Assembly: GCA_038817485.1 (NCBI GenBank)
Contig: JAWAZL010000005.1
Span: 12,435 to 36,434, forward strand
Direction: 5' to 3'
From: Nitrososphaerota archaeon
GTDB taxonomy: Archaea > Thermoproteota > Nitrososphaeria_A > Caldarchaeales > JAVZCJ01
DNA length: 24,000 nucleotides
Shown: one piece after another, positions 684-19,919 of the stretch
How positions within the stretch are numbered: the stretch's first letter is position 1
Layout: each line of letters begins with the position of its first letter
Notes under the pieces: model-generated
What the model saw: the letters and a program-made list of their open reading frames with translations, nothing else
What the model was told of the DNA's origin: nothing
The model's database searches: none
Program-made: the position numbers and the translations under genes

Positions 684-1664
684 CTATATTTTATTCATTT
701 CTTCAAGAGGGATTAAACAATGAGGAGCAAATGTTTCAATTTTTGCACCTTCTTCTAAAAGAGCTGCACTTGGAGTAAGACCACCTATCATGCATAAACC
801 AAACCTATCCATAGCTATTGGAACACCAAGAATTGGTTCATTAGGAACGCCTATAGCTAAAATACCTCCCCATCCCCTATCTTTTAATGTTGAAAGAATC
901 TTAAGTGTTTTCTCTCTTGCTTCAGTAACAATTTCTCTTAAAGCTGCAGGCAATAATCCAGATCCAGTTCTCATGACTTTAATAATCGAAGTTTGATTAC
1001 TTCGAACAAAAAGTTCAAGTGGAGGGATAGTAGTCCCTTCATAAGAGATTAATTCAATAATACGTATCGGTTTTCGATTCACTACTTGAACCAATCCACC
1101 ATATTTAAAGAATAAGGGAATTCCTGAACGTATAAGAACACCATCTATAGTTAAATCGCAAACTGTAAAAAGAGCAATTTTTCCTTCTGGAGTAACTATG
1201 TTTTGGTATTCTTCATTTTCATCTAACACTTTAATATATGGAGCTAATAATAAGCCTTCTTTATGTAAAGACTTTATTATTTCAATAGTTTTATCATAAA
1301 AAGATTTATCTATAATTGAAACATTAGCAACTACCATTCCAGAATCTGCAATTGGATCATATGTAACTGAATAAGCCATTGATAAAAAGCGAGTAACAAC
1401 AAAGCCAAGTCTATAAGATACTAAAGCCCTACTTAATTCTTCTAAACCTTTACTAGTTATAGTTCTTCCACTTCGTTCATGTCCTGAAACTAAACCTCTT
1501 AATTCTAATAATTTAAGATGATATCTTATAGTTCTTTCACTAAGAAAAAAACCTCTTTTCTCTAGTTCTCGTCTAATAAATGTTGACCCGACAGGTTCTG
1601 TTGATTCGCTTAATATCTTTAATATCTCAATTTCTTTTCTTGAAATCTCATACTTTTCAGACAT
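684..1664 (-). CDS. nrpR: NrpR-type nitrogen regulatory repressor (winged helix + DUF128 repeats)
   Basis: N-terminal wHTH EILKILSESTEPVGSTFIRRELEKRGFFLSERTIRYHLKLLELRGLV, then GRTITSKGLEEL, followed by the long NrpR-type C-terminal region. I place the start at the ATG at 1664 (MSEKYEISRKEIEIL). The 13 extra residues of the track ORF (MLNILKIIILNRF, to 1703) look like non-coding read-through. The stop abuts the stop of the convergent GltD-like gene (683/684). Confidence 0.8.
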   Translation of the reverse strand: MSEKYEISRKEIEILKILSESTEPVGSTFIRRELEKRGFFLSERTIRYHLKLLELRGLVSGHERSGRTITSKGLEELSRALVSYRLGFVVTRFLSMAYSVTYDPIADSGMVVANVSIIDKSFYDKTIEIIKSLHKEGLLLAPYIKVLDENEEYQNIVTPEGKIALFTVCDLTIDGVLIRSGIPLFFKYGGLVQVVNRKPIRIIELISYEGTTIPPLELFVRSNQTSIIKVMRTGSGLLPAALREIVTEAREKTLKILSTLKDRGWGGILAIGVPNEPILGVPIAMDRFGLCMIGGLTPSAALLEEGAKIETFAPHCLIPLEEMNKI

Positions 1665-1990
1665 AAACCTATTTAAAATAATAATCTTTAAAATATTTAA
1701 CATTAACGTTTAAATTTAAAAGAAAACAATAAGTTTAGATTATAATATAAAATGAAGTATAAATTTATCCATTCCTTAAAAATAATTGTAGAAAAGATCT
1801 AGAATTGAAGTAAAGACTTAAAAAGCTAAGCTATAAATAGTAATTTATATTAATAAATTTATTGAATCTAAAAATATCTTTTGATTCTCCAATTAATTTT
1901 AACTTTTCTATAGGAAAATAAAAAGCATTAAAATTTAATTCTTCTGGCTATAAATTATTAAATAAAAAAAGAGAGGTAAAAGAAAAAGGA

Positions 1991-3668: not shown

Positions 3669-4406
3669 TTAATAAGAAAAAATTGAAATTGCCTTTCTCC
3701 AATTAAAGCTTGATGTAACAATATCTATTCCAATTTCTTCAAAGCTTTTCTTTATTTCATTTTCTACTACTTCTGGTGCAGCTCCTATTCTTAAAACTAA
3801 TCTATATGATAATAATGTTAATGGATAAATTTTAATTATAACTTTATCAAGATTTCTTTCCGAAATAACATTTTTCAGTTCTGTCATTGTTACATCATTT
3901 ACATTTACTGCACTAAGACCTTTTTTATACCATTCATTAATCATATTTGCATGATAATACGATATATTTTTCTCTCTTCCTAAATAAACATGGATAGGCG
4001 ATAATTTTTTTATATGAAGCATTTCTTTCAAAGAATTATTAAAATCTATTTTAGAAATACCAATTTTTCTTATTAAATTTTTTATTTTAATATTTAACAT
4101 GGAAGTTTCTCCTTTCTCATTTGGAAAAATTATTCCTATATAATCATTTTCAACTTTTTCTATTTTCCCAGTTATTAGAAATTGTTTATTAAAAACTGTA
4201 AGAGGAAAAATAGTTAATTTATTTATAGTATTTATGAAAAATTTTTCTTCACTTACATCTATTATTAGCCATCCATCTTTATTAAAAAACATATTTTTTA
4301 TTTCAACATCTGTTTTTGAATATTTTTCTTTAATCTCTTCCATTAAATTTTTTAAAACTTCATATTTATCTTTCCTATTTGTTCTTTCTGATAATACTAT
4401 TTCCAT
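3669..4406 (-). CDS. conserved-looking hypothetical protein (245 aa), tightly coupled downstream of tfe
   Basis: The ATG at 4406 lies 2 nt after the TAA of the TFE gene (4409-4411). The protein is soluble and Lys/Glu/Ile-rich, with no motif I can name with confidence. It may belong to an archaea-specific DUF family that follows tfe, but I cannot verify that. Confidence 0.6.
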   Translation of the reverse strand: MEIVLSERTNRKDKYEVLKNLMEEIKEKYSKTDVEIKNMFFNKDGWLIIDVSEEKFFINTINKLTIFPLTVFNKQFLITGKIEKVENDYIGIIFPNEKGETSMLNIKIKNLIRKIGISKIDFNNSLKEMLHIKKLSPIHVYLGREKNISYYHANMINEWYKKGLSAVNVNDVTMTELKNVISERNLDKVIIKIYPLTLLSYRLVLRIGAAPEVVENEIKKSFEEIGIDIVTSSFNWRKAISIFSY

Positions 4407-7958: not shown

Positions 7959-8022
7959 AAATAAAGAGTTAAGTATAAGCATGTAATTTTCTTATATATC
8001 TTAAAAAAGGAGAATGATACTT

Positions 8023-8400
8023 ATGAAAAAATTATCTCCTAGAGAATTAAGGAGATTACAATCAAGAATGCTTCAAGGATTAGATTTAAGAAATTATGGT
8101 ATAGCTAATGAAGTTGTGATAAATTTTAATGATAAAAAAATAATTGTAAAATCTCCTTCAGTTACATCTCTTAAAATAGAAGGTGAACAAGTATTTCAAA
8201 TAGTTGGTGGAGAAATTTTTGAAGAAAAAACTGAACTTCCTTTAGAAGAAAAAGAAGAAATAGCTTTAGAAATAAAAGAAGATGATATAATATTAGTAGC
8301 TCAGCAAGCAAATGTTTCCATGGAAGAAGCAAAAAAAGCTTTACAAGAAACTAATGGAGATTTGGCAAAAGCAATTTTGCTTTTAAAATCAAGAAAATGA
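8023..8400 (+). CDS. nac: nascent polypeptide-associated complex protein (archaeal NAC, NAC + UBA domains)
   Basis: NAC domain (VVINFNDKKIIVKSPSVTSLKIEGEQVFQIVG) and C-terminal UBA (DDIILVAQQANVSMEEAKKALQETNGDLAKAILLL). AGGAG at 8008-8012 is 10 nt before the ATG at 8023 but only 1 nt before the track ATG at 8014, so I prefer 8023. Confidence 0.85.
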   Translation: MKKLSPRELRRLQSRMLQGLDLRNYGIANEVVINFNDKKIIVKSPSVTSLKIEGEQVFQIVGGEIFEEKTELPLEEKEEIALEIKEDDIILVAQQANVSMEEAKKALQETNGDLAKAILLLKSRK

Positions 8401-10383
8401 AAAATACGAACTATCTTTAATATATTTTAATGAATTTTCAGATTTGCAAATTGGACATTTTTCAGAAAAACTATAACGTTTACATTTTTCACATAAAAAC
8501 AAACTGTGGCCAAAGCTTATTATTTCTAAGCTTGAAAACAAATTCTTTTTCTCAAAAAATTCATACATCATCTCCATACTCTTTATTGGAATAATTGTAT
8601 AATGCCCCCCTCTTAAATAAGTGTGTATAACAGACTCTATTTCTAGCCTTTTTCTAATATCAATTTCTTCTTCAATCGGTATGAGGTAATTTGAATATTT
8701 TAAATCTTCTTTTTTATAAGCAATTTGATTAACTTTTTTAATACCAAATTGTCGAATGTCATTAAGAATGAATCTTTTCATTGCTTGCATGGAAGAAGTA
8801 GATGAGAGGAGAATTTCTATATTTTTTGAAGAATTTTTACGTGTAAAAGTATCAGCCCATCTAAAAAATTTAATAAGATAATTTAATGAATCTTTATTTT
8901 CAGCAGGATTTCCATTTGTTAATGCTTTTATTGTTTCATAAACCCCTACTAAAGATAAAGAGAAATTAATTTTTTCTTTTATGCCTTTATCTATTAATAA
9001 TTTAGCTAAACTTAAAAATCCTTTATAGCATGTTTTAAAAACTTCTTCAACTTCGCTATGAAATCTTTCTTCATTTCCTTTACTTTCATAAAATATTCTT
9101 GGAATATTTATTGTGAATGATCCATATACATGTTCCCCAGAATATATTGTAAACCCTCCACTACCATAAAGCGCTCTTCGTTCATTTCTTCTAATAAGAA
9201 AATCTATTAAATGAATATTTTCTATTCCATCTTCTATTTCTATTTCTTCAAATGGAATCATTAATCTATATTTATCTATGAGATTTACTTTATCTAAAAA
9301 TTCATTATTTATTTTTTTAATTATTTCCATTATTTCTTTGAAAAAATCCATTTTTTCATAAAGATTTTGATCTGTTAAAGAAATGAATAATTTAGGATTT
9401 TCTTTTTTTCTTTGAGATAAAAGGAAATAGAATATTTTATAAAGATTCTTTTTAAAATTATACTCTCCTGATTTTTTATTTAAATTTAATAAAAATGATG
9501 AAAAATTATTTATAGATTGCTCATAATCAATTTTTTCAGCTTCTTCATTAATATAAAATAAAAATTTTTCAATTAAAATATCATCATTTTCATTAATAAA
9601 TTTATTAATGGAATTGGAAGAATAAAATACTCTATATGGTTTTACTAGCCAAAAATCTAGATTGTCAATATTTATTTTTCCTGCTAAATGCGCATCAGCC
9701 ACGTTTCTTGGAAGAATTTCTAATAAAGTATATTCTCTTAAAACTGCTCCAGAAGTATCCTTTATTATATTATGAATTTCATTCATTGATATTGAATTTA
9801 TTAATTTTGAAATATCATATAATGGTAAACCAACTCTAGTTAATTTATGACGATATTTTTCATAACCTAAATCTATTAATACAGCATTTGCAATTTCTCT
9901 AATAAGTGGTGCTGTGAGATATTCTATTTTTAAATTTTTAATTTTTTCATCTATTACATCAGCTACTTGTTTTGCTAAAGATGCTGGTGTACCAGCTTCT
10001 TTTACTAAAGCATTTATAATTTTATTTTTATCATAAACTTCTATTACAAATTGAGACTTTCTTACGTATAAATGAGTAGTATCTACTTCTTCTATTTCTT
10101 CTAAAATTTTTAATAATGTATCTCCTAAACGAGTTATCGCATACAATTTTGTTTCATTATCAATAGTAATTATTCCATTTTTTAATAATTTTTTTAAATG
10201 ATAGGAAAATTTTCCAGCATCTTGACTTTTAGATAAACCAATAGCTTTCATTAAATCTGTATAACTTAAATTTTGATTTCTTAAAGATTTAACAATTTTT
10301 AATCTTACAGGAGAAGATAAAGCATCTAAAATATTTGTTAAAAATTGTGATTTTTCAATTTTTTCTATTTCAAAATCTTTTAT
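8389..10383 (-). CDS. wHTH (ArsR-like) + ATP-cone + anaerobic ribonucleotide reductase (NrdD)-like domain + C-terminal Zn ribbon; probably non-catalytic
   Basis: The track ORF starts at the ATG at 10251, in the middle of a wHTH. The frame is open upstream to 10386 and encodes NILDALSSPVRLKIVKSLRNQNLSYTDL-MKAIGLSKSQDAGKFSYHLKKLLKNGII. ATP-cone-like segment: LYVRKSQFVIEVYDKNKIINALVKEAG...REIANAVLIDLGYEKY. NrdD-like blocks: ADAHLAGKINIDNLD, GSFTINIPRIF, YLRGGHYTIIPI, then CEKC-x8-CPIC. No Gly follows the Zn ribbon and there are only 5 Cys in total. The proposed ATA start at 10383-10381 is preceded by GGGGAT with a 5-nt spacer. Confidence 0.7.
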   Translation of the reverse strand: MKDFEIEKIEKSQFLTNILDALSSPVRLKIVKSLRNQNLSYTDLMKAIGLSKSQDAGKFSYHLKKLLKNGIITIDNETKLYAITRLGDTLLKILEEIEEVDTTHLYVRKSQFVIEVYDKNKIINALVKEAGTPASLAKQVADVIDEKIKNLKIEYLTAPLIREIANAVLIDLGYEKYRHKLTRVGLPLYDISKLINSISMNEIHNIIKDTSGAVLREYTLLEILPRNVADAHLAGKINIDNLDFWLVKPYRVFYSSNSINKFINENDDILIEKFLFYINEEAEKIDYEQSINNFSSFLLNLNKKSGEYNFKKNLYKIFYFLLSQRKKENPKLFISLTDQNLYEKMDFFKEIMEIIKKINNEFLDKVNLIDKYRLMIPFEEIEIEDGIENIHLIDFLIRRNERRALYGSGGFTIYSGEHVYGSFTINIPRIFYESKGNEERFHSEVEEVFKTCYKGFLSLAKLLIDKGIKEKINFSLSLVGVYETIKALTNGNPAENKDSLNYLIKFFRWADTFTRKNSSKNIEILLSSTSSMQAMKRFILNDIRQFGIKKVNQIAYKKEDLKYSNYLIPIEEEIDIRKRLEIESVIHTYLRGGHYTIIPIKSMEMMYEFFEKKNLFSSLEIISFGHSLFLCEKCKRYSFSEKCPICKSENSLKYIKDSSYFSFS

Positions 10384-10499
10384 CTTTTATCCCCCCAACT
10401 CACCATTTAAAAGATAAATTCTTTTTATGATTTTATAGTATTAAGTTTTTATATTTAAAAATATATTTTTAATTTATTTAAGTATTACTCTTGTATAAC

Positions 10500-10609
10500 G
10501 GGGCCGTGGTCTAGCATGGTTATGATACCCGGCTCGGAACCGGGAGAAAAAATTAATATTTTCCCGAAACAATTGCCCAAAGTCGCGAGTTCAAATCTCG
10601 CCGGCCCCA
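10500..10609 (+). tRNA. tRNA-Pro (anticodon CGG), 110 nt, with an intron of about 35 nt in the variable-loop region
   Basis: GGGGCCG TG GTCT AGCATGGTTA TGAT A CCCGG CTCGGAA CCGGG [40 nt: AGAAAAAATTAATATTTTCCCGAAACAATTGCCCAAAGTC] GCGAG TTCAAAT CTCGC CGGCCCC A. The anticodon arm is intact with no 37/38 insertion. Of the 40 nt between anticodon stem and T stem, only about 5 can be the variable loop. Position 37 reads A, not the G usual for tRNA-Pro. Confidence 0.8.
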
Positions 10610-11439: not shown

Positions 11440-11790
11440 TTGAGGGAAATGGAAGAAGAAATAAATGATTTAGAAGAATTGAAGAAAAAATATGGAGAAA
11501 AATATATTGAAGCGATTAAATGTGTTAAAGAAAAAAGAGTAAAGAAGTATATTTTCAAACCTAGTAATATTAATTTTTGGATAGTAGTTGGATATACTAG
11601 AGATTATCTTGTTTTACCAGAAGTTAATTTTTGTTCATGTAATGATTTTTTCTTTCACGTTTTAGATAAAAAATATGATTTTTGCTACCATATTTTAGCA
11701 GTTAAAATAGCTTTAAAAAATAATCTTTATGAAGAAATAATAGAAGAAGATACATGGTATGAAAAATTAATTAAGGAGTGGAAAGCATAA
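11440..11790 (+). CDS. small SWIM-type zinc-finger protein
   Basis: SWIM signature CxCx(n)CxH: FCSCNDFFFHVLDKKYDFCYHILAV. The track start is TTG 11440; an alternative ATG lies at 11449 (MEEEINDLEE). It is divergent from the phosphoesterase gene with only about 30 nt between the starts. Confidence 0.75.
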   Translation: MREMEEEINDLEELKKKYGEKYIEAIKCVKEKRVKKYIFKPSNINFWIVVGYTRDYLVLPEVNFCSCNDFFFHVLDKKYDFCYHILAVKIALKNNLYEEIIEEDTWYEKLIKEWKA

Positions 11791-15759: not shown

Positions 15760-17841
15760 ATGAGAAAGAATTTATCGAAAGAAAAATTCGATACAATTTT
15801 AGATGAAGAAAGTATAAATTTCATAAGAAAAATGTTACCCTTTACTACAACATTTTTAATAATTTTTATTTTTATATTGTTTATTCCTTTTATAACAATC
15901 ATAATTTTTTTATTACCAATAATAGCAATTTTATCATTCATATCGAAAAGAATTAGAAAAAGCATAGTAAACTTTTTTAAATTACCATTCATTTTTTCAT
16001 TTAAAATAGCTCTTTTCATATCTAGCTTATTTTCAAAAAATAGAATGCAAATTATTAATAAATTTATTAAAGATAGTTTAGAAATGAATAATTTCTCTTC
16101 TAATAAAATTAAAGCAGATATAATTTTAGGATATAGATGGGTTGGTAAATCTTTTTTTGGATATCTTTCAAAAACAGGAATTAATTTTGAAAACCTTGAA
16201 AGAGGCGTAACAATTCTTGGATCTTATGGATTAAACATTATGCGTAAAATAATTAAAGAAGCTGCTATGAAAGAGATTGGAATAATTATCTTTGACTCAT
16301 CTAATCTTATTGGAACTCCTAAAAATGTTAATTCAACTAAGGTTTATAATGTTGGTATTGATACTTTAATTAATCCAATGGATGCTAAACCATTACCTTT
16401 AAAAATTTGGACAAATATTTTGGCAATGGCTATTTCTGTTGCATGCACATTGGATATTGAAGAAGCAAGTTTATTAGCAGATTTCTTTTATAATCAATAT
16501 GAATATGAAAACATATTAAGAGTTGATCAAGTAAATTTATGGAGTGATGGCTTAAATAGATTTTTTGAAAAAAGGAGAGCGGATATTTTAAAAGCAGATA
16601 TTAAAAAACTTTTATTAACAAAAATTTTTTCTGATGAAGGGAAAAATATTTTAAGCTTTTTACCAAAAAGAGGCGAAATAATATGCTTAAGAGTAGGAGG
16701 AATAGATAGAGAACAAAAAACTTTCCTTTTAATATTGTTCATAGGTGTTTTGCATCAAGTTTTAAAAAAGAAGAAAGAAAGGATTCTTATAGTTATAGAT
16801 GAGTTACAAAACCTTTTGCCTCAAATACATCTTTTACCATATGATTATAGACCTGTAATGGAAAGGTTAATGTACATGCTTAAAGAAGCATCAAAGAACA
16901 TTAGTTTATTATTGCATACTTCTGCAACATGGATAGCAAATTATGCTTACAGCATAACTCCAAATTTAATAATAACAGCTATTGAGGATCCATATATTGC
17001 AAATGAAATATCTAAAGTATTTGCATTAGGAAAAGAAGGGGACAATTTTATATTAAAACTTTCACCTCAAGAAAGCATTGTGAAAGTAATGACACATGAA
17101 GGTATGAAAACTTTCTTAATGCTTACACCTATAATAGATTTTAATACAGATATGAATATGGAAAATTTACTTGAAAAAGAAATAGAAGAGAATGTTACAA
17201 CTCTTAAAAAAGACTTTCTTAATAAAAGTGAAGTTGCATATAATATTATGAAATATGTTTTTCAATTAAAAAATGTGAATATAGCAACAATTCAAGCATA
17301 TCTTTCAGATAAATATGAATTGAATGATATAAGAGAATTAATTAAAGAACTTATTGATAAAAAATATTTAAAATTTCCTTCTATTAATGAAGAAAAAATA
17401 GAAATAACTGAAAAAGGAATTTTTGCAATTAATGAATGGGAAGAAAGGAATTTTATAAAAAAGAAAGAAGATATTAAAGAAGAAGAAATTTATTTAAAAA
17501 TTAATGAAAAACTTGTTAAAAAATTAATTGAAGCAGAGAAAAAATTTTTAAATCAAGAATGGTGCCAATCAATTATTCTATGTTATAATTTAGTTAGGCA
17601 TGTGATGATATTATTAATTTCAAATCCAGAAAAAACTAGATGGAAAAAATTTAAAGCATTATATGAAACTTTATGTATTGAAGGCTTAAAACCAATAGAA
17701 ATGGAGGATATTGAATGGTTAGAAGAAATAAAGAATAAAGCTGAAAAAGCAGATTTAAGCATAGGAGAAAAAGAAGCTGAAAGAGCATTAAAAATTGCAA
17801 AGAATGTCTTAATGAGTATTCTAAGGAAGGGGAAAAAATGA
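15760..17841 (+). CDS. membrane-anchored P-loop NTPase with an internal winged helix and a helical C-terminal tail (HerA/FtsK-like or Arch_ATPase-like; family unresolved)
   Basis: Residues about 26-95 contain 2-3 TM helices (FTTTFLIIFIFILFIPFITIIIFLLPIIAILSFI; LPFIFSFKIALFISSLF). Literal Walker A GYRWVGKS (aa 124-131, nt 16129-16152). A second HerA-like strand-loop VTILGSYGLN...IGIIIFD has no Lys. Walker B is ILIVIDELQNL (aa 342-352). wHTH about aa 485-560 (NIATIQAYLSDKYELNDIRELIKELIDKKYL...ITEKG). A Lys/Glu-rich helical tail runs to aa 693. Confidence 0.7.
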   Translation: MRKNLSKEKFDTILDEESINFIRKMLPFTTTFLIIFIFILFIPFITIIIFLLPIIAILSFISKRIRKSIVNFFKLPFIFSFKIALFISSLFSKNRMQIINKFIKDSLEMNNFSSNKIKADIILGYRWVGKSFFGYLSKTGINFENLERGVTILGSYGLNIMRKIIKEAAMKEIGIIIFDSSNLIGTPKNVNSTKVYNVGIDTLINPMDAKPLPLKIWTNILAMAISVACTLDIEEASLLADFFYNQYEYENILRVDQVNLWSDGLNRFFEKRRADILKADIKKLLLTKIFSDEGKNILSFLPKRGEIICLRVGGIDREQKTFLLILFIGVLHQVLKKKKERILIVIDELQNLLPQIHLLPYDYRPVMERLMYMLKEASKNISLLLHTSATWIANYAYSITPNLIITAIEDPYIANEISKVFALGKEGDNFILKLSPQESIVKVMTHEGMKTFLMLTPIIDFNTDMNMENLLEKEIEENVTTLKKDFLNKSEVAYNIMKYVFQLKNVNIATIQAYLSDKYELNDIRELIKELIDKKYLKFPSINEEKIEITEKGIFAINEWEERNFIKKKEDIKEEEIYLKINEKLVKKLIEAEKKFLNQEWCQSIILCYNLVRHVMILLISNPEKTRWKKFKALYETLCIEGLKPIEMEDIEWLEEIKNKAEKADLSIGEKEAERALKIAKNVLMSILRKGKK

Positions 17842-18680
17842 GATATATTTCTACTGGTTGTAAAATTCTAGATAAATTAATGGGTGGTGGTTTCTTAGCA
17901 AGTGCAATAAATCTTATTTATGGAGATCCTGGAAGTGGAAAAACAACATTAATCCTTCAAACAATTCTTAATTTATCTAAAAATTGTGAAGGAGAATTTT
18001 TCTATTTAGATACAGAACAAGGTTTTCATGAATCTAGATTATTACAAATGGCTAAAGCTCTTAATATTAATAAATCAATTTTGGAACGTATGTATATAAC
18101 TCGTGTAGATAGCTTAAGTGAGCAACATAAAATTATTATTCATAAATGGGAAGAAATAATAAAAAATGAAGGGCTTCAACCATTAGCTTTTATAGTTGAT
18201 AGTTTTGTGAATCAATATCATAAGCAACTATTAGCTGCAAAAACTGCCTTTTTAGCAAGTGAAGCTAGAGAATTACAAGGTAAGCTTGCATATCAATCTG
18301 GAAAATTAATGAGTTTAGCTATAAAGTATGATGTACCTGTTATTCTTGTATCATGGACTAAAAGTGCTGCATATAAAACATTTTTAGATAGGGAAAGGAA
18401 TAAAATGTTAAAAAAACAAGAATTATTAGATTTAGAATTAGGTTTTGATGCAAAAAGGTTTGAAGTAATAGGTGGTTCTCATCTTGAATATGTAAGTAAA
18501 ACAATATTGAGATTATTGATTTTGAAAGATTATAAACGTCTTGCAATCTTAGAAAAACATATAGCTATGCCTACTCCTAAAGTAGTAAAGCTTAAAATGA
18601 GTGAAGAAGGATTGGTTGGAGATGATGAAAAAGTATACGAATTAAATGATTACTGGAAAAAGATAATTAAGGAAACATAG
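17838..18680 (+). CDS. radB: RadB-type RecA-superfamily ATPase (RadA paralog)
   Basis: ISTGCKILDKLMGGGF...INLIYGDPGSGKTTLILQ (Walker A), FYLDTEQGFHESRLLQMAK, Walker B LAFIVDSF, ELQGKL...LAIKYDVPVILVS, and C-terminal GGSHLEYVSKTILRL...LAILEKHIAMP. All are collinear with RadB/RadA core motifs, and there is no RadA N-terminal HhH domain. The ATG overlaps the upstream stop (ATGA at 17838-17841). Confidence 0.75.
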   Translation: MRYISTGCKILDKLMGGGFLASAINLIYGDPGSGKTTLILQTILNLSKNCEGEFFYLDTEQGFHESRLLQMAKALNINKSILERMYITRVDSLSEQHKIIIHKWEEIIKNEGLQPLAFIVDSFVNQYHKQLLAAKTAFLASEARELQGKLAYQSGKLMSLAIKYDVPVILVSWTKSAAYKTFLDRERNKMLKKQELLDLELGFDAKRFEVIGGSHLEYVSKTILRLLILKDYKRLAILEKHIAMPTPKVVKLKMSEEGLVGDDEKVYELNDYWKKIIKET

Positions 18681-18804: not shown

Positions 18805-19317
18805 ATGAATGAAAAAATTGTAATATGGTTACTTAGAACGATCACGATTATAGTTATTATAACACCTTTTACATTCTATTATTTTACTTCAGGATCATTA
18901 TTAAATTTCATTATGCCAAATTTAAATTTACCTCATGGATTACCATCATTTGACTTTAGTTCAATCCGTATAGTATCTATAGATTATCTCTCTACTAATG
19001 GAGAATACATATTGAATATTAAATTGCTTAATAATGGAAATACTAGAATTGGTTTAAATAAATTAAACGTAAAAATAATAAATCCCTCTTCAAATATTAA
19101 TGGAGAAATAATTCTCCAAACACCTTTCATTTTAGAACCTGGTAAAGAAGAAAATGTACAATTTTTATTCTCATTAGAAAAAGGGTCTATTGAGGACTTT
19201 ATAATGTTACTTACACAAGGATATCCTATTAATCTTTCAGGAAATGTTACTTTAGTCTTAAATTTAATCGAAATCCCACTCGATTTTTCTATAAATAATT
19301 TTAGTTTTCCAAGCTGA
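18805..19317 (+). CDS. signal-anchored extracytoplasmic beta-rich protein (170 aa), function unknown
   Basis: N-terminal TM/anchor IVIWLLRTITIIVIITPFTFYYF. An alternating beta-strand-like pattern follows (YILNIKLLNNGNTRIGLNKLNVKIINPSSNINGEIILQTPFILEPGKEENVQFLFSL), reminiscent of Ig/LEA14-type beta-sandwiches. That fold assignment is only a guess. Confidence 0.6.
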   Translation: MNEKIVIWLLRTITIIVIITPFTFYYFTSGSLLNFIMPNLNLPHGLPSFDFSSIRIVSIDYLSTNGEYILNIKLLNNGNTRIGLNKLNVKIINPSSNINGEIILQTPFILEPGKEENVQFLFSLEKGSIEDFIMLLTQGYPINLSGNVTLVLNLIEIPLDFSINNFSFPS

Positions 19318-19322
19318 AGAAA

Positions 19323-19919
19323 ATGAAGAAATATAGAATTCTCTATTTAATTAGTGGAATTATTTTTCTAATAGTATCTATAATTGGTGGTGCTTGGTGG
19401 GAATTTATTGGAGGTATAGCTTCTAAACCATTCTTATATATTGGCCTTTCTCCATTTGATTTTAAGTTTGAACTTCTAGGTTTAGAACCCATTAAGCTAC
19501 CACCTCTTATACTGAGTTTATTCTTATGTGAAAGATTACTTGCTATAATTGGATCGATTACAATAATTATTGGATCGTTATTATATAATAAAAAATGGTC
19601 AAGAAGATTTCTTAATCTTAGACCATTCACAATGCCTATAGTATTTACTATCATAATCTTAATTGGCATTATTGTAATAATATCATTGACACAACATTTC
19701 ATACCTATTGTATCTCAAGTTATGCCAAACTTAAGGGATGCATTATTGCCATATTCAAATCAATATTTAATTATAAACCTTCATCCAATATCACATATAG
19801 ATGCTTCCTTAAAGATCAAAGTTTTATCTCAATTCACATTTAGATTTTGGATGGCTTTGTTATCAGGTTTGTTATGTTTGATAGCTTTAATTCTTCATAA
19901 AAAAGAAACTAAGAAATAA
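19323..19919 (+). CDS. polytopic membrane protein (198 aa, about 5 TM), function unknown
   Basis: It starts 5 nt after the stop of the preceding gene. Hydrophobic segments include ILYLISGIIFLIVSIIGGAWW, LILSLFLCERLLAIIGSITIIIGSLLY, MPIVFTIIILIGIIVIISL and FWMALLSGLLCLIALIL. Confidence 0.65.
   Translation: MKKYRILYLISGIIFLIVSIIGGAWWEFIGGIASKPFLYIGLSPFDFKFELLGLEPIKLPPLILSLFLCERLLAIIGSITIIIGSLLYNKKWSRRFLNLRPFTMPIVFTIIILIGIIVIISLTQHFIPIVSQVMPNLRDALLPYSNQYLIINLHPISHIDASLKIKVLSQFTFRFWMALLSGLLCLIALILHKKETKK

Follow-up and report, generated by a model that had tools for sequence, protein, structure and literature searches.

A winged-helix protein built on an inactivated class III ribonucleotide reductase scaffold, a candidate regulator of deoxynucleotide supply in Thermoproteota

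Results

A pseudo-NrdD gene with an N-terminal winged helix

We analyzed a 24,000-nt stretch of DNA (here, the window) from a Nitrososphaerota archaeon (assembly GCA_038817485.1, contig JAWAZL010000005.1, positions 12,435 to 36,434). It carries a gene whose product joins a winged helix-turn-helix (wHTH) and an ATP-cone to the body of an anaerobic (class III) ribonucleotide reductase (RNR), NrdD, from which the catalytic residues have been lost. We call this product a wHTH-pseudo-NrdD. An initial annotation, made from the sequence alone, had proposed this three-part architecture, and Pfam, NCBIfam, and Foldseek agree with it. The gene and its domains are as follows, with the evidence in parentheses.

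8389 to 10383, minus strand: pseudo-NrdD gene, 664 codons plus stop (open frame; Pfam and NCBIfam domains)
10381 to 10383, minus strand: probable ATA start codon (assigned from a conservation alignment)
10084 to 10329, minus strand: ArsR-type wHTH, residues 19 to 100 (Pfam, PDB sequence matches, Foldseek)
10183 to 10221, minus strand: recognition helix DAGKFSYHLKKLL, residues 55 to 67 (family alignment)
9850 to 10068, minus strand: ATP-cone of a noncanonical, "inner" type, residues 106 to 178 (Pfam, alignment)
9814 to 9921, minus strand: most conserved block, YLTAPLIRE...YRHKLTRVGLPLYD, residues 155 to 190, formed by the last cone helix and the linker into the barrel (family alignment)
8509 to 9786, minus strand: NrdD-like alpha/beta barrel body, predicted to be catalytically dead, residues ~200 to 625 (profile, AlphaFold2 [AF2], Foldseek)
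8446 to 8493, minus strand: C-terminal zinc ribbon CxxC-x8-CxxC (C631, C634, C643, C646; aligns with the zinc ribbon of true NrdDs)

The barrel is recognizable in both sequence and predicted fold. Pfam NRDD matched the window protein at 73 bits, and a profile of 36 family members matched PDB NrdDs along the whole barrel (9d3x, 2e-30; 4coi, 1e-27; T4, 5e-20). When the AF2 model (predicted local distance difference test, 84; predicted TM-score, 0.71) was compared with known structures using Foldseek, the top 36 matches were all class III RNRs, with E values down to 5e-21. The protein has the ten-stranded alpha/beta barrel and C-terminal zinc ribbon of NrdD. Against the NCBIfam NrdD equivalog model TIGR02487, it scored 71.6 bits and did not reach the cutoff of 326.35; alignment placed the catalytic cysteine and glycine among the lost residues, as the initial annotation had expected.

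Loss of the radical and substrate-phosphate residues

We aligned the window protein with four true archaeal NrdDs (P0205, P0215, P0236, and P0233), which carry RxxCxxHDLR, MGCR/CCR, and SRITGY. The following positions, together with ungapped matches to 9d3x, describe what remains of the active site.

9661 to 9672, minus strand: NIDN, residues 238 to 241, in place of the HxHD triphosphate motif (alignment; true NrdDs have IHLHD or IHIHD)
9631 to 9633, minus strand: Arg251 at the position of the beta-A cysteine, Tm Cys125 and T4 Cys79 (alignment with true NrdDs)
9154 to 9201, minus strand: finger-loop remnant FLIRRNERRALYGSGG, residues 395 to 410 (ungapped 9d3x match)
9190 to 9192, minus strand: Arg398 at the position of the thiyl-radical cysteine (ungapped match to 9d3x)
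9106 to 9108, minus strand: Asn426 of the N-[IL]-P-R-I motif (invariant in the family alignment)
8401 to 8427, minus strand: vestigial glycyl-radical hairpin KYIKDSSYF, residues 653 to 661 (ungapped against RFSRITGYL of true NrdDs)

HxHD is the triphosphate-binding motif of NrdD, and the beta-A cysteine (Tm Cys125) is conserved throughout known RNRs (PMC4493059). The initial annotation had reported that the thiyl-radical cysteine is gone, which the alignment bears out: residues 395 to 410 contain no cysteine, and Arg398 occupies its position, judged against "PMGCRSF...NLPRIALESKGD" of 9d3x and MGCR or CCR of the true archaeal NrdDs. In light of PMC4493059, T. maritima Cys330 was not retained as the radical cysteine. 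The peptides quoted in the initial annotation, the position of its zinc ribbon, and its count of five cysteines in the protein (452, 631, 634, 643, and 646) were all found as described. Asn426 is the sole residue kept in the active-site region, and an asparagine is present there in 200 of 203 family members.

The glycyl-radical site had been described as absent from a protein that ends soon after the zinc ribbon. The glycine is indeed lost, with Ser659 (nt 8407 to 8409) at its position and the end of the protein five residues on, but the loop is not simply missing. Because KYIKDSSYF aligns without gaps with RFSRITGYL, we regard the loop as vestigial; in the AF2 model, strands 651 to 657 and 660 to 663 form a hairpin with S658-S659 at its tip. 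The glycyl-radical motif R-[IV]-x-G-[YF] is replaced accordingly (KDSSY versus RITGY). No nrdG was found in the 24-kb window. As read from these alignments, the window protein is a catalytically dead NrdD in which the radical and substrate-phosphate residues have been lost at every position tested.

Conservation of the winged helix and the ATP-cone

Pfam HTH_5/ArsR matched residues 24 to 72 (E = 1.8e-8; 34.5 bits versus a cutoff of 22), DUF7347 matched residues 19 to 90, and HTH_20 also matched; the NCBIfam HTH_metalloreg subfamily model scored 34.5, under its cutoff of 55. Sequence matches of the wHTH in PDB were NolR (E = 1.2e-4) and NmtR. For the N-terminal domain, Foldseek returned NolR, including a DNA-bound entry (TM-score, 0.74 to 0.76; root mean square deviation, 2.5). 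In the region of the recognition helix, G57, F59, Y61, H62, and L63 are invariant across the wHTH-pseudo-NrdD family. Conservation of this helix, as seen in the alignment, fits a conserved DNA target.

The ATP-cone that the initial annotation had taken to be a kept nucleotide sensor is present, although it is of the noncanonical inner type. The phosphate-binding hairpin of a canonical ATP-cone reads V-x-K-R-D-G. The V-R-K-S cone of the window protein aligns with the second (inner) cone of tandem-cone true NrdDs, which has the same variant, and family-wide the K-R pair has become R-[KTR]-S. Nucleotide sensing by the cone is therefore plausible but less secure, since the canonical K-R pair is gone. 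The ATP-cone model matched all 36 of the family members at E values of ≤1e-3 (best, 2.9e-9). When the cone alone was searched against PDB, the only matches were designed helical repeats, which we judged to be spurious.

Most of the invariant columns of the family fall in the wHTH recognition helix, the cone, and the linker. From Y155 to D190, columns are invariant or nearly so, in a block common to true archaeal NrdDs. Such extreme conservation of the cone argues that it has a function.

Reading frame and start codon

The frame is open from nt 10386 to the stop codon at 8389 to 8391. Its first ATG lies only at 10251 (codon 45); the wHTH thus relies on a non-ATG start. We consider the ATA at 10383 the most likely start codon because of conservation in the 5' region, the ratio of nonsynonymous to synonymous substitution rates (dN/dS) over codons 1 to 44 (0.17 to 0.48), and an existing NCBI annotation of 664 aa for P0257, which falls in the same 90%-identity cluster as the window protein. 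Just 5' of the ATA are an in-frame TAA (10387 to 10389) and a G-rich GGTGA...GGGGGG (10391 to 10404). In an alignment of 5' regions, the TAA followed by AAR ATA AAA GAT is common to three related genomes (L081, L083, and L085); a fourth relative (P0005, L084) has AAG in place of TAA and an ATG farther upstream. At codons 9 and 12 the changes are synonymous, a sign that the region 5' of both the ATT at codon 18 and the ATG at codon 45 is coding. That ATT is the alternative start used by other annotations. We rejected a poly-G frameshift that would restore an upstream ATG or TTG, as no gain or loss of one G opens the frame and the TAA is kept in three genomes.

The gene is preceded by the following region.

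10384 to 10499, no strand: AT-rich intergenic region, putative promoters of the pseudo-NrdD gene and a divergent tRNA (sequence)

Upstream of the start lies a conserved TTTTAAAT box (10406 to 10413), and "ATCTTTTAAATGG" is conserved in all five relatives in the 5'-region alignment. From the position of the box, transcription is predicted to start near the ATA, and the mRNA could be leaderless. A sigma-70 promoter scan gave no signal over shuffled sequences; the sigma-70 model is inapplicable to archaea.

Distribution, selection, and origin of the family

We scanned species genomes with the YLTAPLIRE...YRHKLTRVGLPLYD block as the pattern. Of 600 matching stretches, 592 were confirmed, and at least 592 species genomes of Thermoproteota encode relatives of this architecture. 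The taxa are Bathyarchaeia, Nitrososphaeria (Caldarchaeales-type, Wolframiiraptor, and Nitrososphaerales), Methanomethylicia, and Culexmicrobium. By word-indexed search, we identified 131 relatives that share the three-domain pattern, and all of them come from archaeal metagenome-assembled genomes. An exhaustive profile search gave 839 clusters at 50% identity (E < 1e-30), some true ATP-cone NrdDs included, and the Nitrososphaerales subfamily alone had more than 4,600 matches. In the databases, family members are labeled "anaerobic ribonucleoside-triphosphate reductase," ArsR regulator, or hypothetical.

Among 203 wHTH-bearing representatives, none keeps the glycyl-radical context, two have a cysteine at the finger-loop column, and two have one at the beta-A column. 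C termini vary: a subfamily of ~585 to 603 aa has no zinc ribbon, some proteins end before the glycine ("...FSRI"), and others have degenerate tails ("SRLSSKYLP" and "YRRRGAYLYS"). Against orthologues, dN/dS for the window gene was 0.21 to 0.33 overall (wHTH, 0.14 to 0.20; cone, 0.12 to 0.19; barrel, 0.18 to 0.47). The overall ratio indicates that the gene is under purifying selection.

The closest true NrdDs (P0205 and P0215 type) have two ATP-cones. Their outer cone is canonical (VVKRSG), and their inner cone starts with [IV]-R-T-S and ends with YLTAPLIRE...YRHKxTRLGxPVYD. In the wHTH family the inner cone is nearly unchanged, and the wHTH has taken the place of the outer cone. Duplication of a tandem-cone archaeal nrdD-type gene is the probable origin of the family.

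A second kind of pseudo-NrdD has no wHTH (P0218, P0225, P0227, P0228, P0238, P0248, P0251, and P0256). These proteins have one or two ATP-cones (mostly two) and no finger-loop cysteine, and the glycine tail is usually gone; HxHD is kept in several and the beta-A cysteine in some. They may be evolutionary intermediates or other nucleotide-binding regulators.

RNR genes adjoin the pseudo-NrdD gene in other lineages

We surveyed the neighborhoods of 80 loci from other species. At 12 Bathyarchaeia loci, the downstream neighbor of the pseudo-NrdD gene, in the same orientation, is an nrdD. The downstream NrdD has RxxGY at 10 of the 12, and the other two are truncated at a contig end or broken by Ns; Pfam was run on two of these NrdDs, and their NRDD scores were 480 to 510 bits, versus 73 for the window protein. 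At two of the 12 (L008 and L071), the pseudo-NrdD gene and nrdD abut or overlap (6-nt gap or overlap). Matches of 2.8 to 2.9 kb in tblastn searches, which we had considered as possible inteins in the family, proved to be a pseudo-NrdD gene plus an adjoining true nrdD. A glutaredoxin gene lies between the pseudo-NrdD gene and nrdD at 3 of the 12 loci, and this intervening gene suggests a thiol-dependent class III RNR operon there. A small glutaredoxin/NrdH-like gene (CxxC) is in this intervening position in some Bathyarchaeia: L020 (12450 to 12755; Pfam Glutaredoxin, E = 4e-9), L012, L023, and L076.

At all six Nitrososphaerales loci, which include two contigs of ~1.5 Mb, one of them the chromosome record CP066694.1, the gene directly downstream is the class II RNR gene nrdJ (Ribonuc_red_lgN, Ribonuc_red_lgC, and TSCPD). 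The RNR class of the partner thus switches by lineage while the adjacency persists, which is the strongest argument for action on RNR expression. The nrdJ of L087 (8208 to 13721) encodes 1,837 aa with a Pfam LAGLIDADG_3 match and faint Intein_splicing and Hint_2 matches, and it probably carries one or more inteins. In addition, pyrB is present at 51 of the 80 loci, mostly as a convergent neighbor (median gap, 7 nt), and pyrI at 22. Convergent downstream pyrB accounts for 36 to 49 Bathyarchaeia loci; pyrB is divergent and upstream at three loci (two Ca. Terraquivivens and one Caldarchaeum).

Candidate operators were found near several of these genes. Six Bathyarchaeia promoters of nrdD (or grx-nrdD) share ATACARAATTTTATAC, ~8 nt, and CTAAAAATTTAAATAG in flanks that are otherwise unalignable, and a related candidate element lies ahead of the tandem of pseudo-NrdD gene and nrdD in L008 and L071, which are both GC-rich. 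A weight matrix built from the six promoters gave a high-scoring extra site (L065) that precedes an integrase-like open reading frame (ORF; identified by eye), not nrdG. In Nitrososphaerales, TTGWCAA adjoins the TATA boxes of the pseudo-NrdD gene and of nrdJ. Eight such sites occur in 2.9 kb of pseudo-NrdD and nrdJ promoter regions, versus 28 in 95.5 kb elsewhere. In the 14 kb of L086 (61% GC), the only two sites are those at the pseudo-NrdD gene and nrdJ.

Other features of the window

Two features directly flank the pseudo-NrdD gene and its promoter region.

8014 to 8400, plus strand: NAC gene (Pfam NAC and UBA), convergent, with a 12-nt 3' overlap at 8389 to 8400
10500 to 10609, plus strand: intron-containing tRNA, divergent (Rfam tRNA, 53.8 bits)

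The tail-to-tail arrangement with NAC recurs at 12 to 16 Nitrososphaeria loci. ARAGORN reported no tRNA in the window. Read by eye, the tRNA at 10500 to 10609 has a ~35-nt intron 3' of the anticodon stem and the anticodon loop CU-CGG-AA, which would make it tRNA-Pro(CGG). A tRNA also lies upstream of the orthologous gene in Nitrososphaerales (L077 and L086 to L088). Other neighbors in the window are threonine synthase, an HTH_3 protein, HflX, TFE, NrpR, a metallophosphoesterase, and an OB-fold (possibly RPA-like) protein, and the gene order of the window is kept in close relatives.

The NrpR-type nitrogen repressor homologue (684 to 1703, minus strand) matches NRD1_2 (255 bits) and HTH_12, and in relatives (L081) it adjoins glutamate synthase-related genes. 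A 693-aa ORF without a Pfam match (15760 to 17841, plus strand) overlaps by 4 nt with a gene for a RadB/KaiC-like ATPase (17838 to 18680, plus strand; Rad51, E = 6.5e-15). The pair is kept in L081 and L082, and the large ORF is also present in L085 (694 to 696 aa). The ORFs at 18805 to 19317, 19323 to 19919, 3669 to 4406, and 11440 to 11790 (116 to 245 aa) have no Pfam match at E ≤ 0.001; by its CxC...CxH pattern, read by eye, that at 11440 to 11790 resembles a SWIM-type zinc finger.

Discussion

We propose, with moderate confidence, that the wHTH-pseudo-NrdD is a one-component transcription factor for deoxynucleoside triphosphate (dNTP) supply, built on an inactivated NrdD and serving as an archaeal counterpart of NrdR. 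The ArsR-type winged helix at the N terminus would bind DNA. The NrdD body would hold the dimer and offer two winged helices to promoter DNA, so that the stripped barrel would act as a dimeric scaffold, a sensor body, or both. The conserved ATP-cone, perhaps together with relic nucleotide sites of the barrel, would report nucleotide status, and nucleotide binding would, as in NrdR, alter either the oligomeric state or the affinity for DNA. The most likely targets would be the RNR gene of the lineage in question, nrdD or nrdJ, and possibly genes of pyrimidine biosynthesis. The domain architecture, the loss of catalytic residues throughout the family, purifying selection, the wide distribution in Thermoproteota, and the adjacency of relatives to RNR and pyr genes are observed; that the protein binds DNA, which genes it targets, and which ligand it senses are inferred.

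Several observations weigh against this proposal. The 24-kb window contains no RNR or pyr neighbor, its promoter contains no TTGWCAA, and the weight matrix from the six Bathyarchaeia nrdD promoters finds no site in the window. The candidate operator motifs were picked post hoc and are not the same from one lineage to another, and some of the loci are closely related to each other. The convergent pyrB order in Bathyarchaeia is not a regulatory arrangement by itself. The cone opens with V107-R108-K109-S110 rather than V-x-K-R-D-G, and its Pfam match (PF03477, residues 106 to 177) scores 25.5 bits versus a cutoff of 25.8. In Pseudomonas NrdA, which belongs to class I, such an inner cone reportedly does not bind nucleotides.

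In a different reading, the protein is a transcription factor, but the barrel is a mere dimerization scaffold, the cone is a structural relic, and the factor answers a non-nucleotide signal or controls a general, non-RNR regulon. The missing K-R pair, the loss of HxHD and the active-site residues, and the housekeeping neighbors of the gene in the window and its relatives (NAC, HflX, the HTH_3 protein, threonine synthase, and tRNA) would all suit it. We nevertheless consider it unlikely: without a link to RNR, it is difficult to account for neighboring RNR genes of two unrelated classes in two lineages, and conservation in the protein peaks in the cone, beyond what is expected of a relic. It is also conceivable, though improbable, that the protein does not act on DNA and is a regulatory or scaffolding partner of a real reductase, for example in a heterodimer with NrdD or as a nucleotide-binding buffer, with the wHTH used for protein contacts. 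NrdD enzymes are dimeric, the tandem with true nrdD is tight in L008 and L071, and pseudo-NrdDs without a wHTH exist. Yet in Nitrososphaerales the neighbor is the class II gene nrdJ, whose product lacks an NrdD dimer interface, and the wHTH resembles DNA-binding proteins of the ArsR/NolR kind in both sequence and fold, with a near-invariant recognition helix.

The Pfam NRDD match, the database name, and the NrdD fold would suggest that the protein still works as an anaerobic ribonucleoside-triphosphate reductase, possibly through an unusual radical site. With the radical glycine, both cysteines, and HxHD absent, a TIGR02487 score far under its cutoff, no nrdG in the window, and the loss of a beta-A cysteine that all known RNRs conserve (PMC4493059), we find this highly improbable. 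We give practically no credence to the view that the gene is a decaying nrdD pseudogene copy with an in-frame stop near its 5' end. That view would draw on the in-frame TAA, which lies 4 nt before the proposed start, and on the lack of an ATG before codon 45, but the TAA is conserved in three genomes and followed by an intact 664-codon frame, dN/dS is low across the gene, and full-length orthologues are present in hundreds of species.

The proposed transcription factor resembles several known systems in part. NrdR is a bacterial RNR-specific repressor with a zinc ribbon and an ATP-cone, and it is rare in archaea (PMC9110341). Both combine a DNA-binding module with an ATP-cone and couple, or are proposed to couple, RNR transcription to nucleotide status (PMC9110341). 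The NrdR gene is linked to nrd operons, and NrdR binds paired boxes in nrd promoters; relatives of the window gene adjoin nrdD or nrdJ, the window copy does not, and the operators proposed here are post hoc candidates. NrdR is a protein of ~150 aa with an N-terminal zinc ribbon that binds DNA and a canonical cone. In contrast, the window protein has an ArsR-type wHTH, a 450-aa dead NrdD barrel, and a noncanonical cone; it has no homology to NrdR outside the cone, and its sole zinc ribbon is C-terminal and NrdD-derived. Its inner cone, linker, barrel, and zinc ribbon are homologous to those of ATP-cone class III RNRs (Prevotella copri 8p23, Streptococcus thermophilus 9d3x, and archaeal P0205/P0215), from which it differs in the loss of the glycine, both cysteines, and HxHD, in having a wHTH for the outer cone, and in its truncated or degenerate tail. 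The wHTH itself is like that of ArsR/SmtB regulators (NolR 4omy and NmtR 2lkp) in sequence and fold. Those regulators are stand-alone dimers of ~100 to 120 aa, many of them metal sensors, whereas here the wHTH is one domain of 664 aa.

Bacillus PurR is a phosphoribosyltransferase-like transcription factor. NrtR is a transcription factor that combines a Nudix-like domain with a wHTH (PMC2330246). As in the proposed transcription factor, both join a winged helix to a relative of a pathway enzyme whose catalysis is lost or weakened, and both regulate that pathway; the enzyme fold differs. The initial annotation knew of no characterized example, and in the literature we searched, we likewise found no description of an RNR-derived transcription factor or of the architecture wHTH plus cone plus pseudo-NrdD. 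The design is known from NrtR and PurR and the role from NrdR; an RNR-derived version would be new.

An RNR annotation of these proteins can mislead metabolic inference, for example by crediting an oxygen-sensitive class III RNR to Nitrososphaerales that bear nrdJ, and loss of the glycine, the cysteines, and HxHD provides a simple rule for reannotation. We tentatively extend the proposal to the family as a whole, judging it possible that across TACK archaea these proteins are a master regulator of dNTP supply; Nitrososphaerales, the order to which the ammonia oxidizers belong, would be included. In that case, a tandem nrdD duplicate would have kept the sensing hardware of the enzyme (the inner ATP-cone and the dimer body), traded radical chemistry for a DNA-binding head, and come to control the RNR of the host, of either class, and possibly pyrBI as well. 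NrdR is rare in archaea, and the wHTH-pseudo-NrdD family offers a concrete candidate regulator of archaeal RNR genes. If the proposal is true, this would be the first RNR known to have been converted to a transcription factor, with its allosteric apparatus reused as a sensor.

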